This document shows positions 2,120 to 61,949 of a stretch of DNA of 64,000 nt, one piece after another (position 1 is the first letter of the stretch; every line of letters starts with the position of its first letter). The stretch comes from Octopus vulgaris (Eukaryota): NCBI GenBank assembly GCA_951406725.2, contig OX597815.1:6200001-6264000 (forward strand), given 5' to 3'. Made by a program: the position numbers and the translations under genes. The notes below the pieces were generated by a model that did not search any database, had not been told where the DNA came from, and saw only the letters and a list, made by a program, of their open reading frames with translations.

Positions 2120-2618
2120 GTAAAACAGAATCCGCAAGTTTCAAGTTTTTTTCCATCTCAATGCCGATTGCTTCCGCTAAATTTTTCACTTTCAGTTTGT
2201 GATCATGAAACTTTCCATTTGATGATGAAATCCAAGATATAATGATGATAAAAAAATAATAATAAAAAAGCTCGGCTGCCCACGTCTTTCAATATGGATC
2301 CACTCAATCAAAACTAGTCTGGAGCTAATCAACGCCAACGGCTACGACCACCACCAATATATAGCACTTAATGTCAATATTGACGTTTGACATTTTAAAA
2401 ATATCTCAAGACTGTTTTTAGATTATTCTCCTCTGAGCAGTCATAACTGAATACCAACCGATGATCATTCAATTCGTAGGAAGACATTGCCAAAGATAAA
2501 AAAAAACAAAAAGAAAAGGTAAAAATGGAGAAAGAAAAGTTACAACTTTTCAGATTCATTCTTCTTGATAAACGTTTCAGCACCAAACACGATGTGTGTC
2601 GATTTAAACCATGATGGA

Positions 2619-3001
2619 TACTCTCTTACTCTTTTACTCTTTTACTTGTTTCAGTCATTTGACTGCTGCCATGCTGGAGCACCGCCTTTAGTCGAGCAAA
2701 TCGACCCTAGGACTTACGCTTTGTAAGCCTAGTACTTATTCTATCAGTCTCTTTTGCCGAACCGCTAAACACACCAGCATCAGTTGTCAAGCAATGTTGG
2801 GGGGACAAACACAGCCACACAAACACGCACGCACACACATATACGACGGGCTTCTTTCAGTTTCCGTCTACCAAATCCACTCACAAGGCTTTGGTCGAGG
2901 ATATAGTAGAAGACACTTGCCCAAGGTGCCACGCAGTGGAACTGAACCCAGAATTATGTGGTTGGTAAGCAAGCTACTTACCACACAGCCACTCCTGTGC
3001 C
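2619..3001 (-). mobile_element. tRNA-derived SINE, family A
   Basis: Reverse complement of the family A consensus (GGCGCAGGAGTGGCTGTGTGGTAAG...GGTTCAGTCCC...GAAACAAGTAAAAGAGTA). Confidence 0.85.
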
Positions 3002-3208
3002 TACTGAAGAAAAAAAGAAGAGACGAAAAAACATTGATCTACATCACCGTGTCACGCTGAATCTTCCCCGAGAACTAAAGAGTACTTGTGTGTCTGTGGG
3101 GTGTTCAGCCACTTGCACGTTAATTTCACGAGCAGGCTGTTCCGTTGATCGGATCAACTGGAACCGCCGGAGCGCCACGAATATTATATAATTTGTATAC
3201 AATACAAA

Positions 3209-3606
3209 GGCGCAGGAGTGGCTGTGTGGTAAGTAGCTTGTTTACCAACCACATGGTTCCGGGTTCAGTCTCACTGCGTGGCACCTTGGGCAAGTGTCTT
3301 CCACAATAGCCTCGGGCCGACCAATGCCTTGTGAGTGGATTTGGTAGACGGAAACTGAAAGAAGCCCGTCGTATATATGTATATGCGTGTGTTTGTGTGT
3401 CTGTGTTTGTCCCCCTAGCATTGCTTGACAACCGATGCTGGTGTGTTTATGTCCCCGTTACTTCGCGGTTCGGCAAAAGAGACCGATAGAATAAGTACTG
3501 GGCTTACAAAAGAATAAGTCTCGGGGTCGAGTTGCTCGACTAAAGGCGTTGCTCCAGCATGGCCGCAGTCAAATGACTGAAACAAGTAAAAGAGTAAAAG
3601 AGAGTA
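3209..3606 (+). mobile_element. tRNA-derived SINE, family A (full length)
   Basis: A-box-like TGGCTGTGTGG, B-box-like GGTTCAGTC, internal (TA/GT)n and a (GTAAAAGA)n tail. About 20 copies occur in the window. Confidence 0.9.
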
Positions 3607-3818
3607 TAGAGTGTCCCCCAATTCATTGCCTTCCTGCCAACACCTCCTTTTTCTCTACCGCCCCCTTAGGCACCAGTGCCCATCTGGACCGGCTCAATTT
3701 GAGAACCCATGATCTACACGAAGACAACCGTTGCACATCAATGGGAAGTTTTTCTCTCTCATTGTATATCTTCATGCGTACACACACGAGTGCATAGAAA
3801 GCTATATATATATATATT

Positions 3819-4125
3819 AGTGGCATTCCGTCGGTTTCGACGACGAGTGTTCCAGTTGATCCGATGAAAGGAACACTTTACTCGTTAAATTAACGGGCAA
3901 GTGGCTGAGTACTTCACAGACACGCGTACCCTTCACGTAGTTCTCTGGGAGATCCAGCGTAACACAGAATGTGATATGGCTGGCTGGTCCCTTTGAATTG
4001 CCGGTACAGCTCATCTTTGCCATCTGAGTGGACTGTAGCAACGTGAAATGAAGTGTCTTGTTCAAGGACTCAACGCAATGCCGGAAATTGAACTCGTGAC
4101 CTTACGACTGTGTTCCACGTGCCTT
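3819..4125 (-). mobile_element. SINE family D
   Basis: Similar to 17542-17843; 3' body shared with family C copies at 22362-22737 and 60003-60383. Confidence 0.65.
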
Positions 4126-11325: not shown

Positions 11326-11807
11326 TCAATATAGGGTGGCAAAAAAATTTTGTAGAATTCTTTTGCCACCAGCGGCCTAGTGGGAAAAAAATTAAATAGT
11401 CATAAACCATTTTTAAGTTCAACATCACAATCAAGGAACGGCCATAATAGGCCATTCACCCACTAGAAATAACAGCCAAAAGCTTTAACCGCAAAATAAC
11501 GTCAATTCCGTAAACCAGGAGAAAATTAAAAAACATTTACCCTGTAATTTCTCTCTCTATATATATATATATATATCATTAATTAATCAATATAAGGGTA
11601 GCAAAAAATTCAAGAAAAATTTATCGCCACCAGCGTTCTAGTGAGAAAGAAAAAATAATCACAGACTATATATATATATAATTTCAACAATATTAAGGAA
11701 TGGCCCTGGTAGGCCATTCGACTCACCAGAAAGAGCAGCCAAACTCAAACCGCTAAATAGTTGTAATTCTGAAACCAAAGGAGAAATATAAACATTTACC
11801 CTAATCA

Positions 11808-11901
11808 TCTTTGGACTATGGATAGTTTCGACACTTTGGTAAACCAATTTAATTAAATTAAATTAAATTTGTTTACATCTGGCCTGTCTCGTCAGCAAAG
11901 A
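11808..11901 (-). ncRNA. Type I hammerhead ribozyme (left arm)
   Basis: Minus strand TCTTTG-CTGACGA-GACA...TGTC-GAAA-CTATCCATAG-TC-CAAAGA. All core nucleotides and helices I, II and III are present. Confidence 0.85.
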
Positions 11902-11939
11902 AGCTGGTGTCGCCTCGTGGATATATATTTTCCTTGGCT

Positions 11940-12033
11940 TCTTTGCTGACGAGACAGGCCAGATGTAAACAAATTTAATTTAATTTAATTAAATTGGTTT
12001 ACAAAAGTGTCGAAACTATCCATAGTCCAAAGA
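11940..12033 (+). ncRNA. Type I hammerhead ribozyme (right arm), predicted GUC cleavage after 12027
   Basis: TCTTTG(11940-45)-CTGACGA(11946-52)-GACA..long AT hairpin..TGTC-GAAA(12012-15)-CTATCCATAG-TC-CAAAGA. Confidence 0.85.
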
Positions 12034-12156
12034 TGATTAGGGTAAATGTTTTTATTTCTCCTTTGGTTTCAGAATTACAACTATTTAGCGGTTTGAGTTT
12101 GGCTGCTCTTTCTTGTGAGTCGAATGGCCTATCAGGGCCATTCCTTAATATTGTTG

Positions 12157-12199
<43 letters not shown>

Positions 12200-12528: not shown

Positions 12529-12915
12529 TATGTGGGCATATTACGTCACGAAACGTGTACAACATAAAATACGAAGTATGAGTACATGGAATATGAACTA
12601 TTTTTTCGAACAACAAAAGATACAACTGGAAAACAAGACAAACAACATAAATAACGACCCATCATCAGTTGTTGGCTGTTTTTCTACTCTCGCATTTTGA
12701 GCATTTAACAACAATATACGCTTTCGATAAAACAGCCGCTCCTGCAAAGCAAATTAAATAAAATTTGGGATTTTGCGGAGGGTCAAAATTGGTAACACAA
12801 ACAGGACAATGAAAACAAACAGGAAGGGCTGCTAAGCCTAAACGAGGTTGTGGTGACATACACGTAAATGAAGCTTGGACAGGAGACAGACAAGAACACA
12901 TCTTCCTTATTCCAG
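12520..12915 (-). mobile_element. Unclassified (TA)n-anchored interspersed repeat (family F)
   Basis: Copies at 14085-14283 (+, inside Tc1) and 26650-27030 (+); related sequence at 57010-57290. Confidence 0.7.
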
Positions 12916-13120
12916 CTGTGTGTGTGTTTGTGCGTGCGCGTGTGTGTGTCTGTGGTATATTAGCGAGCAAAAAATGAGAACGTTTTATAATGTTTTAAAT
13001 TTCGGAAAAGCTAGTAAACGTACAAATTCGCAATTGGTTTCGTCAATACGGTTAGCCATTAGCCAAATTCTGGGAAAAATCTAAATTTGTACAATGGTCT
13101 TAATAAAAGTTAATAACACT

Positions 13121-14638
13121 TATACTAGCTTCATCCAAATGTCTCATGTGCAAAATAAGAGGGCAGTCAAACCAAAAAAATGTTTCAATTGACTCGAAAC
13201 CATAATAATGATTGAAAGAAATGTAAATACGAACTTAACACACTCAGTATGATGTTTGTAGACCTTGATTGGGGATCACCTCTGCACATCGATTGCCACA
13301 GGACATAACAAGTTTCCTGCACAAGTCAGGTGTTACTTTCTTCCGTTCCTCTTCCAAAATCTCCCATAAGTTCGTTGTAGTAATTGGTGTCCTTTGTGTT
13401 ATTTTGTCTCCAAGTATCTTCCAAAGGTTTTCAATTGGATTTAAGTCTGGACTTTGTGCTGGTCACTTCATTGCTTGGATATTTTGTTCACTAAAGAATC
13501 CAGTGACACGTTTTGCTGTACGACAAGGGGCCGTTATTTTGCATGAAAATTCACGGTTGATTCGGAAATGCTCGTAATGATGGGACCACAAGCTGTTTAA
13601 CCAAACTCAAATAGATATTAGCATTAATAGTCCCTTTAATCTGCACTAGAGGGCCAACTCCTTCAGATGAAATCATTCCCCACACCATGACGCGTCGTCT
13701 TCCAAACTCGGCAGATTTCTTCAGGTACTTGGATTTTAGCCGATCTCCTGTGAATCGCCAAACATACTCTCTACCTTCTGAACCTACAAAATTGAATTTG
13801 CTTTCATCGCTAAAATGAACTTTTGACCAATTTTCATCCCTCCAGTTCACATGAGCTTCTTCAAATGAAAGTCTTTCCAATTTATTGTTCTTCTTGCTGA
13901 TGGTAGGTTTCGTGGCCGGGGAACAAGTCTTTAATCCAAATTCCTTCAGACGACGAGACACTGTAAAGCGGCTCACTTCCGTACCATTATGTACTTTTAT
14001 TTTCTTAGAAATTCCAGTCTCAGTCTCGAAAGGATCCTTCAATACGCACGCACGCACAAACACACAGACACAGACACACACACAGCTGGAATAAGGAAGA
14101 TGTATTCTTGTCTGTCTCCTGCCCAAGCTTCATTTACGCGTATGCCACCACAACCTCGTTTAGGCTTAGCAGCCCTTCCTGTTTTTTTTCACTGTCCTGT
14201 TTGTGTTACCAATTTTGACCCTCCGCAAAATCCCAAATTTTATTCAATTTGCTTTGCGGGAGCAACTGTTTTATCGAAAGCGTTTCATGGCTCCATTATC
14301 TCGCATGGTGGTTTTGCGTGGTCTACCAGGTGCCTCGTCTGGTTCAAATCCTTTAGTTTCTTCATAGAGCTTAAGAACACGTGAAACAACACTATTAGAT
14401 CTCTTTAGGTCTCGTGAAATACCGAGAAAGTCATTCCTCAATCTTTCATCCTGACAATTTCTTTTCGGAGATCGGGAGTAAATTTAGCGTGGTGTGCCAT
14501 GTTCGGAAGCTAGCACAATACTGAGACGGTAGTAACATTGAGCCTGCAAATGTAGACAATGTTTGAAATTTTCAGAAATTTCTGAAGGAAACCAATCGTT
14601 CTCTTATTTTGCATATGAGATATTTGGAAGGAACTTAT
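13121..14638 (-). mobile_element. Decayed Tc1-family DNA transposon, interrupted by an insertion at ~14040-14283
   Basis: Minus-strand translation gives VSRFTVSRRLKEFGL, WSKVHFSDESKFN, VMVWGMIS and PAQSPDLNPIENLW. Imperfect TIRs (TCCAAATRTCTCATRTGCAAAATAAGAG) lie at ~13134 and ~14600-14627. Confidence 0.9.
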
Positions 14639-17230: not shown

Positions 17231-17499
17231 TCTGGCACGTACGACTACTGGCTGAGGTTCAGCTAAACGGTATTTCCAGCTTTAAACTTTTATCTCGTAT
17301 CTTATGCAACTGGATTCGATCATGGTGGGGATAAATAGTGTTGGCCCTGTACTTTTGTGTGATGATTACCCTAAGGATACCCTTAATGATACCCGGAAGA
17401 TATCCCTTAGCATACGAAACATGAGGTAACGAGATGTTTAACGCTATAGGTAACACATTGCACACACACACACATGTTTACGCGGGCGCGCGTGTGTGT

Positions 17500-29449: not shown

Positions 29450-29727
29450 TTCCGGTCATAGAGTTGCTAATGGTTTCGCATCTGTAAAGCGCTTGGCTTT
29501 ATAGACGACTCGTCAGACTCTAATGGCGGAGGGCACATAACCACTCTTCAAACTGGATGTAGAAAACCGTTACGGTCAGTTACAAGTTTACAAATTCACT
29601 GACTGTAACGGTTTTCTACCACCAATTTGAAGAGAGTTTACATGACCTCCGCCATTAGAGTTTGACCAGTCGCCAATAAAACTAAGCGCTTTGTAGATGC
29701 GAAACCATTGGTCAAACTATGACCGGA
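29450..29727. mobile_element. Fold-back element; each arm is a degenerate hammerhead
   Basis: Arms ~29450-29580 and ~29598-29727. Left (-) reads TAGAGT-CTGACGA-GTCGTCT..AGATGC-GAAA-CCATTAGCA-ACTCTA. Right (+) reads TAGAGT-TTGACCA..AGATGC-GAAA-CCATTGG-TC. Confidence 0.7.
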
Positions 29728-29808
29728 CGTCTATTTAACTGCATGTAAATACATTACTGGTCTGTTCTTTAGAGTATGCTTCTTTTACGGACATATGGTC
29801 CACTGATG

Positions 29809-29840
<32 letters not shown>

Positions 29841-30240
29841 TGTATGTATGTATGTATGTATGTATGTATAATATTATATTATATCAAAAGGATGTGTTAT
29901 AATACTATTCCACATATACAAAAACAATATAAATCCGAAAGAAGCACACTCTAAGATGTAGAGCAGTATATATTAAAAATGGGGAAGGTCGGTTTATACC
30001 CCATCATCAGCTGCCCCACAGATATCATTATGGTTTCGACACCTGGGCAGTACCATTCAATCTGGTGGTGTCAACAGCACTAAAATAAGTGTGGTTTGGG
30101 AACAAACATACGAAAGAAACAATTTTCAAACACATTTACTCCATGTACATCAGTATCTGTATATAAATTCAATAAATAAATCTATAACCGACTCCTAAAT
30201 ACGTAACAACTAAACAGCATATAATAAAAATGGGGAAGGA

Positions 30241-30308
30241 CGGTTTATGAGACTACTTTAGGTTTTCCGTCCATAAACGGTTTAGCTTTATGGCGTATCG
30301 TCAGACCC
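30241..30308 (-). ncRNA. Hammerhead motif, inverted partner of 30343-30416 (helix III damaged)
   Basis: Minus strand GGGGT-CTGACGA-TACGCCATAAA..TTTATGGACG-GAAAACCTAAAGTA-GTCTC. Confidence 0.55.
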
Positions 30309-30342
30309 CGCTTCCATATTTTATAGAGATTATGGTCCAACA

Positions 30343-30416
30343 GGTTTTGGGATCTGACGATATGCCATAAAGCTAAACCCTTTATGGACAGGAAACCTAA
30401 GGTAATCCCATAAACC
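30343..30416 (+). ncRNA. Type I hammerhead ribozyme, predicted GUA cleavage after 30404
   Basis: GGTTTTGGGAT-CTGACGA(30354-60)-TATGCCATAAAG..CTTTATGGACAG-GAAA(30392-95)-CCTAAGG-TA-ATCCCATAAACC. The base of helix II is imperfect. Confidence 0.75.
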
Positions 30417-30516
30417 GGCCTTCCCCATTTTTAATATGTACTGCTCTACATCTTAGAGTGTGCTTCTTCTTTCGGATTTATGTTATTTTTACAAACGATA
30501 GATATATATATATATA

Positions 30517-30916
30517 TCTTCTTTATATATAAAAGAGAAGTTGTGTGTCTGTCTCCTACGATTTAGATTCCTAACTACTCCCACATTTTGCGGTACAGTT
30601 TAACCAAAAAGCGGGTATCTTATAGTCGTGATTCATATCGAGCCCTTCTGGGTATTAGCGCGTGTCTACGATGAGTCTACGATTAAAAAAAAAAATTACC
30701 ATCATTTTTCCCCATTTTTAATGTATTTTTTTTGCTATTATATAAGGGAAGTAACTCTCTAAAACTGCATGATTAAATCTCAGAACGTAAAAAGCTACAG
30801 TAACACCCCCCCTTTGTGGTTAGCCATATTGAGATGGCTATTATACTTTACATCTCTAAAAATGCTTATATAGTTATTTCCCTTACAAAGCCGAGCAACG
30901 CCAGGCGATATTGCTA

Positions 30917-45308: not shown

Positions 45309-45825
45309 TTAGTTAGTTAGTTAATTTTTTTGGCTCAAAAGCAAAAAGCATGGCCATGTAGGGGGACATGGAGTTATGTACAGGGTGGTGTTCATGTAAA
45401 GAGTTCAGGCCACTTGAGGTCTAGGGAGACTTTGAACCAAGCGGTCGTCGGCATCTTCACCATCTCGTCCGGCAGCTTGTTCCACGGATCCGCAACCCGG
45501 ACGGAGAAAGCTCCTCTCCTTCGATTGAGATGAAATCGTCGCAGGTAGAGCTTTTCGGAATGACCCCGCAGCCGACGCTCTGGAGCAGGAGTGAAGAACA
45601 GCTCTTTCGAGAGGTTACACTTTCCGCTTATGATGTTGTGAGCGAGAATGAGACCACCACGGCGGCGGCGTTTTTCTAGAGAATAAAGGTCGAGCGTCTT
45701 CAGCCTTTCTTCATAAGACAAATGCTTGAGACCAAGAACCATGCGGGTAGCCAGCTTCTGGACTCTTTCGAGATGCTGTATGTCTTTGAGGAGATAAGGA
45801 GAAGAGGCTTGAATCCCGTACTCAC
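45309..45825 (-). mobile_element. CR1-type LINE 3' fragment with (TAAC)n tail
   Basis: EYGIQASSPYLLKDIQHLERVQKLATRMVLGLKHLSYEERLKTLDLYSLEKRRRRG..RGHSEKL..FSVRVADPWNKLP..FKVSLD. Confidence 0.9.
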
Positions 45826-46385
45826 CAGCGTGACTTTGAGCGGTAAGAATATGGCTGCTGTTTGCACAGTGTCATGTCTTTGCTTAGAATTGGAACCACG
45901 AGAAAGACGGGGAGACGACGCTTCGTTTAACTGAAGCTCATAAACACATAAAAGAAAGGCATGTTTGACAATTGTTCGTTTTATGTTTAGTGTTTGTCTT
46001 CACTACCTGGCTTGGCAACCGTTGCTGGTTTGTTTACGTCTACGTAAATTAGTAATTCGGCAAAATAGACCAATGAAATAAGTATAAGGCTTAAAAAGAA
46101 GAGAACAGGGAACTTTACCTTTTGACCGACAGATTTAAAAAATAATTTTTTGTAACTAAACACTTTCAAACTTCGGACACTGGTAGAATGTGTCATATAA
46201 AACATATTTTACTCTTAGCATGTTTGAGAACAACTTATATTTATGAAGTAATTTCACGTCAAAGTTGTCCTATTTCGGTAATTTCAACCAATCAATGACG
46301 TGTATTCAGCTGAAAAAAATTACTGCCGTTGTTTGTCAACAACAACTATCGGCGGTGTATTTTTCGTTTGTCACTGTTATTTATG

Positions 46386-61640: not shown

Positions 61641-61949
61641 TCTTCAGGAAATAATAATAATAATAAATTAGGGAATCTACGAGAAACCACCATGCTGAAA
61701 GTAGCAGCCATGATCTGACTCTAAAACCACCTAAATTGTCCATATATCAGCACGGAGAGAAAATAAAGAGAGACAAGATGAAACTACAGTAATTTTTTAC
61801 TAGCTTCATCTTGTTTCTTTATTTTCTCTCCGTGTTGATATATGGAAAATTAAGGTGGTTTTAGAGTCAGATCATGGCTGCTATTTTCAGCATGGTGGTA
61901 TCTCGTAGATACCCTAATTTATAATTTTAATAATTATTACCTTTGAAGA
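61641..61949. repeat. Fold-back inverted repeat (~140-bp arms, ~14-bp spacer)
   Basis: AAATTAGGGAATCTACGAGAAACCACCATGCTGAAAGTAGCAGCC... is inverted as ...GGCTGCTATTTTCAGCATGGTGGTATCTCGTAGATACCCTAATTT. Confidence 0.85.

Follow-up and report, generated by a model that had tools for sequence, protein, structure and literature searches.

Hammerhead-bearing fold-backs as probable pseudo-LTR ends of Penelope-like elements in a 64-kb window of animal-type DNA

Two fold-backs carrying hammerhead motifs, A and B, and a smaller related piece, C, lie close together in the stretch of DNA analysed here (the window, 64 kb). They are very probably decayed, 5'-truncated pseudo-LTR ends from one lineage of endonuclease-bearing Penelope-like elements (PLEs). 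Two subfamilies of that lineage would be represented, left by two-cDNA insertions that carried the ribozyme as cargo. The inverted truncated copy, the one-sided tail, the microsatellite targets, the palindromic helix III and the clustering are published PLE marks. The features are real and above chance, and the known insertion architecture of PLEs explains the fold-backs. The original prediction for this DNA had proposed clustered copies of hammerhead-bearing mobile elements that end at TA-rich microsatellites, and that claim is supported. The window itself is about 40% GC, AT-rich, microsatellite-dense DNA of animal type, and we take its interspersed repeats to resemble octopus SINEs. The features of the region are as follows.

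29451-29580, minus strand: inverted arm of element A, without tail; CTGACGA at 29516-29510, GAAA at 29477-29474, helix I intact, cleavage triplet decayed
29581-29597, no strand: 17-nt loop between the A arms; inversion point 64 nt upstream of C3
29598-29727, plus strand: direct arm of element A; first core box decayed (TTGACCA, 29662-29668), GAAACCATTGGTC intact at 29701-29713
29728-29806, plus strand: 3' extension of the A direct arm including the tail; homologous to the B 3' part; shared motif at 29769-29784
29811-29869, plus strand: (TATG)14.8 microsatellite at the 3' end of A
29880-29926, no strand: left piece of repeat E, an unrelated high-copy repeat with high depth; 29880 is the start of the compared stretch and not necessarily the boundary of E
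29927-30000, minus strand: piece C, a B-family 3' fragment with tail and no core; begins about 5 nt behind the cleavage site; 74 matches, 4 transitions and one 3-nt gap against 30410-30490
30001-30206, no strand: right piece of the high-copy repeat E
30215-30309, minus strand: inverted arm of element B, without tail; stops 5 nt upstream of C3; intact CTGACGA (30304-30298), with AAAA in place of GAAA
30310-30348, plus strand: B "spacer", the element's own upstream sequence; the X1 loose-end consensus before 30345 agrees with 30316-30345 in 24 of 30 letters (hand count)
30343-30416, plus strand: type I hammerhead with intact core; helix I of 6 bp extended by 5 bp; long, bulged helix II with U-G as closing pair; palindromic helix III of 3 bp; GUA
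30417-30437, plus strand: B 3' part up to the tail-less end; many family copies pass from 30437 directly into (TA)n
30438-30484, plus strand: optional tail of about 46 nt, on the B direct arm and piece C, not on the inverted arm; shared motif at 30453-30468; listed pieces end at 30480-30489
30498-30517, plus strand: short (TA)n array on the 3' side of B

The fold-backs and their hammerhead motifs

Both strands of the 64 kb were scanned with a strict type I descriptor (CUGANGA, a stem of at least 6, GAAA, UH and a helix I of at least 5). Three matches were found, at 30354 (plus), 11946 (plus) and 11895 (minus), against two matches over 30 dinucleotide shuffles (mean 0.07). The matches at 11946 and 11895 are the two arms of a separate fold-back at 11667-12174. 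Tolerating one core change recovered the left arms of both A and B, plus three more candidate sites. The expectation of at least four hammerhead motifs in 1 kb, arranged as two fold-backs, is borne out, as both fold-backs and four type I motifs were found. All four motifs are present, but a full three-box core exists in only one of them, at 30343-30416. In this B right arm CUGANGA, GAAA and NUH are all complete and in type I order, which makes it the one intact arm of the four; each left arm has one core change, and the right arm of A has two in its first box.

Rfam hammerhead models gave no match in three scans (two at E up to 10, the third judged on 150 of its 170 rows), and the models probably miss these motifs because helix II is long. 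The output held only sub-threshold matches of miRNA-type and other hairpins. An exact-pattern scan of metagenome contigs (at least 120 stretches) and viral contigs (40 stretches) returned chance matches only; none of the 160 stretches runs on into the 3' side of helix II, and blastn extends none past the pattern. Elsewhere in the window, at 17359-17435, a one-mismatch hammerhead-like layout (GTGATGA ... GAAA ... TA) overlaps a 23-nt tandem repeat; it could have arisen by chance or be what is left of some other hammerhead family.

Fold-back B consists of head-to-head arms at 30215-30309 and 30349-30443 that are 87% complementary. Its intact motif is the type I hammerhead that had been described, with helix I formed by TGGGAT (30348-30353) and ATCCCA (30405-30410), core boxes CTGACGA (30354-30360), GAAA (30392-30395) and GUA (30402-30404), and a helix III of ACC/GGT. 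Cleavage is predicted after 30404. The two strands described for helix II are there, CCATAAAG at 30365-30372 and CTTTATGG at 30380-30387, but TA-C/TG and AC-A/GG intervene before the core, and position 10.1-11.1 is U-G, not G-C. Both B arms carry U-G at the columns aligned to G10.1-C11.1. When the B unit is folded alone, the predicted probabilities are 0.64-0.98 for helix I, 0.98-1.0 for helix II and about 0.2 for helix III as a monomer, with a fold z of -2.2. The two versions of the helix III segment in A and B, ACC-TAA-GGT and ACC-ATT-GGT, can each pair with a second copy of themselves, leaving a single mismatch in the centre (-8.2 and -8.9 kcal/mol). At its 5' end the B direct arm exceeds the inverted arm by about 35-40 nt: the spacer is B's own 5' part, so the inverted arm is the shorter copy.

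Fold-back A has head-to-head arms at 29451-29580 and 29598-29727 with 83% complementarity, and weak homology to B suggests that its inverted arm may extend to about 29430. The G10.1-C11.1 closing pair of helix II is present in both arms. CTGACGA and helix I on the left arm (29516-29510, minus) and GAAACCATTGGTC on the right arm (29701-29713) were recovered where expected. The idea that a consensus of the two arms rebuilds a complete ribozyme survives in part. The boxes do complement each other, but the cleavage triplet and the start of the helix I 3' strand are ambiguous because the arms differ there at adjacent places. Beyond the right arms lie the TA-rich arrays that had been noted, (TATG)14.8 at 29811-29869 for A and the short (TA)n at 30498-30517 for B.

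A and B were also said to share the downstream motif TTAGAGTRTGCTTCTT. It is present at 29769 and 30453 as claimed, but a third copy at 29939-29954 (minus) had been overlooked. With up to 2 mismatches allowed the window holds three matches against 0.10 expected, all within 29769-30468. The motif is ordinary homologous sequence within a one-sided 3' tail. As a candidate 3' splice acceptor (TTAG after a TTAAY-like stretch) it has no splice joint among the 15 of 157 contig joints listed. To the right of the B (TA)n, the stretch 30517-30760 contains at 30708-30722 a 15-nt match to B's 30421-30435; from 30517 onward it presumably begins like a non-autonomous Helitron-type repeat.

Kinship, copy number and surroundings

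Are A and B unrelated families that happen to share an architecture? Their right arms align over about 135 nt with a score of 60.5, against a maximum of 34 in 300 shuffles. The four hammerhead regions in the arms of A and B were aligned with one gap at 77% mean column identity, and 87% of the cells in this alignment pair, against 28-49% in slid controls. Five pairs are changed on both sides: three in helix I and 10.1-11.1 between A and B, and one by CpG decay within B. The covariation score is 0.358, which none of 500 shuffles reaches; with four rows from two lineages, and a structure derived from the very sequences it is tried on, this is supportive and not a formal test. The helix III loop differs between A and B yet stays palindromic. 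A and B are diverged subfamilies of one lineage. The description of their sequences as different was overstated, and the "several distinct families" reduce to homologous subfamilies, with the third piece, C, 95% identical to the B 3' part.

Public contigs were compared with 29880-30497, which covers B and C. There were 4644, 5462, 2560 and 156 records in four runs under three organism labels; run X9, with 156 contigs, is guessed to be RNA. The summed depth of the B core is about 1.4-1.6e5 in X1 and X4, against 35-61 per single contig. This corresponds to roughly 2,600-4,100 B copies in these two runs, a rough figure in that depth is not copy number. The inversion junction of B has a depth worth only about 2-4 copies against thousands for the core, again a rough estimate from depth. 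The family has two 3' ends, at 30437 or at about 30480-30489, and 48, 73 and 37 contigs of X1, X4 and X8 have (TA)n directly behind 30437. In X1, loose ends before 30345 (55 contigs) and before 30337 (66 contigs) run on into upstream sequence like the spacer. Consensus letters upstream of about 30313 differ between runs, and there is a weak hint that the family may share a common 5' end near that position. No listed contig piece spans the whole of 29880-30497.

Majority letters in the contigs are C at 30363 (54-60%) and G at 30390 (60-63% in the three larger runs, 22% in X9), and these letters restore a helix II CG/CG pair that has decayed in the copy studied here. N7 varies between C and T (38-49%) and is the sole core change of B among the 40 of 132 variant rows listed. 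Position 30400, in the helix III loop, varies between A and G (17-28%).

Piece C sits inside repeat E, with about 25 target bases lost; the pieces of E are contiguous in other copies, with joints from 29926 to 30001 in X1, X4 and X8. The join between E and the B left arm is real, since an X1 contig covers 30064-30296, from E to that arm, without a difference. An X4 contig covers the same join with 10 differences in 202 letters, and this comparison suggests that a second organism label has the B insertion beside E as well. The arrays in which A and B end are distinct and some 630 bp from each other, and C and the B left arm lie in or beside repeat E; the proposal that the elements inserted at the same microsatellite sites is therefore not upheld. 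The clustering itself is real, as two B-family pieces would fall within 500 bp with a chance of about 0.0015 (4,000 copies, 2.7 Gb). It fits insertion next to older copies, or one complex event. No age difference among A, B and C is shown (Fisher P = 0.45 and 0.12; P = 0.12 for C versus B).

Repeat E has features of its own. Its minus strand has a hairpin that ends in GTGTCGAAAC, like the hammerhead at 11.8 kb, without an upstream CUGANGA. A 60-nt GT-AG stretch and a second donor-like site in E look like short introns, and 30000-30056 is present as a 57-nt tandem duplication in single contigs of X4 and X8. A second hammerhead in E (minus strand, GAAA 30037-30034, CTGATGA 30010-30004) was considered and rejected: its order is wrong for type I, there are no clean type II helices, and z = -0.56.

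Several other repeats were seen in the window. The fold-back at 11667-12174 is younger, with 238-nt arms that are 98% alike, belongs to an unrelated hammerhead family and is inserted in (TA)n. Both of its cores are intact, with a G-C closed helix II, a 4-bp palindromic helix III and an inversion 9 nt upstream of C3. An apparent older, core-less relative of its 3' part lies at about 11420-11550 (minus, by eye). At 12718-14283, inverted arms of 237 nt (92%) enclose 1.1 kb, and between them a 192-aa frame (13551-14129, minus) resembles by eye a Tc1/mariner transposase. A fold-back at 61650-61935 has 120-nt arms (92%), a 46-nt spacer and (TAA)n-like ends, and the scan finds no hammerhead core in it. 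A 159-aa frame at 45395-45871 (minus) looks by eye like the C-terminal end of a CR1/L2-type LINE protein, with no Pfam match at E 0.01.

Penelope-like ends and a proposed insertion route

The PLE reading rests on an architecture described in several papers. An adjacent inverted 5'-truncated copy, a tail of 30-40 bp and a microsatellite bias make up the PLE scheme in PMC8557442, and the inverted truncated copy, one-end tail and microsatellite bias recur in PMC8969392. In Pen2a of A. vaga there are head-to-head junctions, an inverted pLTR 37 bp shorter and an optional 31-bp tail (PMC3846280). In PLE hammerheads helix II is long and bulged, whereas helix III is small and palindromic; one genome can contain many families of them, usually as solo motifs, and opposite-strand pairs lie 100-700 bp apart (Cervera and de la Pena 2014, PMC4209133). 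PLEs insert into or next to older copies, and cleavage by dimers is described (PMC6765202). Cleavage and extension on both strands, with two internal initiation sites that delimit the tail, are given in PMC11167929, where the ribozyme is protein-assisted and dispensable for insertion in vitro. Penelope-like families have been annotated in an octopus genome in PMC13282606, the available portion of which does not mention ribozymes.

These marks recur in the window. A and B each have an inverted 5'-truncated copy adjoining a direct copy, and the B family has an optional tail at one end (ends 30437 and about 30484). The terminal repeats contain short palindromic helix III segments, ACC-TAA-GGT and ACC-ATT-GGT, and the targets are AT-rich or microsatellite DNA, (TA)n in the contigs and (TATG)n and (TA)n in the window. 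The likeness to Penelope/Poseidon and Neptune elements and to A. vaga Pen2a thus extends from the shorter inverted head-to-head copy and the one-arm tail to the AT-rich targets and the insertion near older copies. In contrast to these, only pseudo-LTR ends without an ORF are present here, and the tail is about 46 nt rather than 30-40 bp. The window contains no full-length copy with a pseudo-LTR end in partial tandem.

Similarities to the PLE hammerheads of PMC4209133 are the type I order with CUGANGA and GAAA, the long bulged helix II, the dimer-capable palindromic helix III, the sequence-diverse families within a genome and the opposite-strand pairs at 100-700 bp. There are also differences from that account. 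Helix II is 10-12 bp here against 6-8 bp, and helix I is 6 bp with an extension. A is without the extra base before 10.1, its bulge coming after the first pair. B has U10.1-G11.1, whereas the paper calls G10.1-C11.1 highly conserved. Poseidon of Anolis carolinensis (PAc; PMC11167929) likewise has two 3' ends delimiting a tail downstream of the hammerhead and an AT-rich target. In PAc, stem II is where the ORF begins, and initiation takes place at an AC-rich site, whereas here the tail-less end lies in an AT run.

A search for coding partners covered 150 of 480 non-repetitive stop-free frames, comprising all 98 that start in 22-38 kb and the 52 longest elsewhere. Pfam gave six weak matches in five of these frames, all under curated cut-offs, and none to a reverse transcriptase or GIY-YIG domain. 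Because no reverse-transcriptase frame was found among them, the partner ORF and clade of A, B and C are unproven and their membership is that of candidates. Truncated copies would not be expected to contain such a frame. No target-site duplication was seen by eye at the fold-backs.

An insertion route can be proposed from the literature and from the geometry of the copies. The PLE protein would nick AT-rich DNA on both strands, and reverse transcription would start at two nearby internal sites of the RNA, giving ends with and without the tail; both steps are taken from published work. A single insertion may then account for each fold-back: opposite target strands would have primed two cDNAs, the first starting at the tail end and the second at the tail-less end. 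Both would have stopped early and been joined head to head. Nothing on-topic was found in the literature on twin priming in PLEs.

What determines where the inverted arm stops? Counted upstream from C3, the inversion points of B, the 11.8-kb fold-back and A lie at 5, 9 and 64 nt, respectively. The claim that the inversions end at the helix I 5' strand thus holds for B and the 11.8-kb fold-back, two of the three, but not for A. The ribozyme itself might place the inversion, through helix I folding in the template or cDNA or through an adjacent RNA start or splice site that sets the stop of the inverted arm. We consider this doubtful. Besides the two breakpoints within 10 nt of C3, the B junction recurs in contigs: joints from 30305 to 30345 are listed in two X1 contigs and one X4 contig, and the junction is spanned by at least one further contig, record 13 of X4, which over 198 letters shows 29 differences and 3 gaps. 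Against a stop at helix I stands the break of A 64 nt upstream. Two of three within 10 nt has P = 0.03-0.16 under a uniform model, depending on the range assumed, and truncation favours short copies anyway. Element sequence goes on upstream in the B direct arm, as it does in the loose ends listed before 30345 and 30337, and the B RNA therefore does not start at helix I. There is no peak of loose ends at 30346-30354 among the 24 rows listed (1279 further rows exist). Snap-back priming through helix I was also considered and rejected, since it would yield a core-less direct arm, contrary to the observed geometry.

The ribozyme would be pseudo-LTR cargo, selected in active ancestors and decayed in the A, B and C copies. 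Arm divergence is 17% in A, 13% in B and 2% in the younger fold-back at 11.8 kb. According to the literature, PLE hammerheads with their short palindromic helix III are poor cutters and probably act as dimers or with protein help. The fold-back cannot aid dimer action of its two motifs, since the inverted arm is antisense. In the predicted read-through fold of B, helices I and II have probabilities of 0.0, and a transcript through either fold-back would form one long hairpin that hides the ribozyme fold. The ribozyme could form only from a transcript that starts inside the spacer.

Alternative origins and significance

A and B could instead be fragments of a non-LTR retrozyme, although we regard this as quite unlikely. 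Retrozymes of this type are short, non-coding units that multiply by way of circular RNA and as a rule lie in head-to-tail arrays. The unit is indeed short (about 175 nt) and at high copy, with no coding part nearby. Molluscs are among the hosts of retrozymes (PMC7229834), for which an origin from PLE pLTRs has been proposed (10.64898/2026.07.22.740005), and the animal non-LTR retrozymes of both sources are likewise short, non-coding, high-copy repeats with a type I hammerhead. They differ from the copies here in being head-to-tail, whereas here the arms are head-to-head and the tail is optional. The window shows no head-to-tail repeat of the unit, copies that end at 30437 enter (TA)n and not a new unit start, and both the optional tail and the length of helix II are typical of PLEs. 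Elsewhere in the genome, judged from 15 of 157 contig joints listed, such arrays may exist.

It is very improbable that each fold-back is a miniature inverted-repeat DNA transposon (MITE) moving as a palindrome with an inherited or incidental hammerhead. Such an element would share the long inverted arms, short spacer, lack of coding capacity and TA-rich flanks. That reading is largely refuted by the junction depth of about 2-4 copies, the asymmetric arms with variable 3' ends, the existence of tail-only piece C and the lack of a target-site duplication by eye. Equally remote is the notion that the host keeps the fold-backs as hairpin RNA or microRNA precursors: the hairpins are predicted to be very stable (-143 to -187 kcal/mol) and sub-threshold Rfam miRNA matches lie over A (77.6 bits, where the gathering score is 140), but divergence between the arms has reached 13-17%, even the best 22-nt stretch within A is paired no better than with randomly placed mismatches (P = 0.83), and Rfam miRNA models score any long hairpin.

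Identification as PLE ends adds one more hammerhead-bearing lineage to a pattern first published in 2013-2014. For this animal group, none of the papers listed by a literature search describes ribozymes of this kind, and on natural 10.1-11.1 variants and solo head-to-head copies nothing was found beyond the papers cited. Further metazoan families are listed in supplementary figures of PMC4209133, and a U-G variant or the present lineage may already be among them. The U10.1-G11.1 closure in both B arms is noteworthy, and it would matter more if a U-G closed ribozyme cuts. PMC8557442 treats the formation of inverted PLE ends as an open question, and a pile-up of breakpoints at helix I across thousands of copies, if real, would matter for that reason.

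These points may be joined in a single, tentative reading of the B family that we think is rather unlikely as a whole. B would be a solo unit of about 175 nt in several thousand copies, which the PLE protein primes at the tail site of the 5' pseudo-LTR and copies as far as an RNA start that is fixed some 40 nt upstream of the core. The hammerhead, with U10.1-G11.1 and the bulge, would be an active natural variant, and the second, inverted cDNA would stop preferentially at the 5' strand of helix I. If this were true, breakpoints in the genome would map a step of the unresolved insertion mechanism of PLEs.
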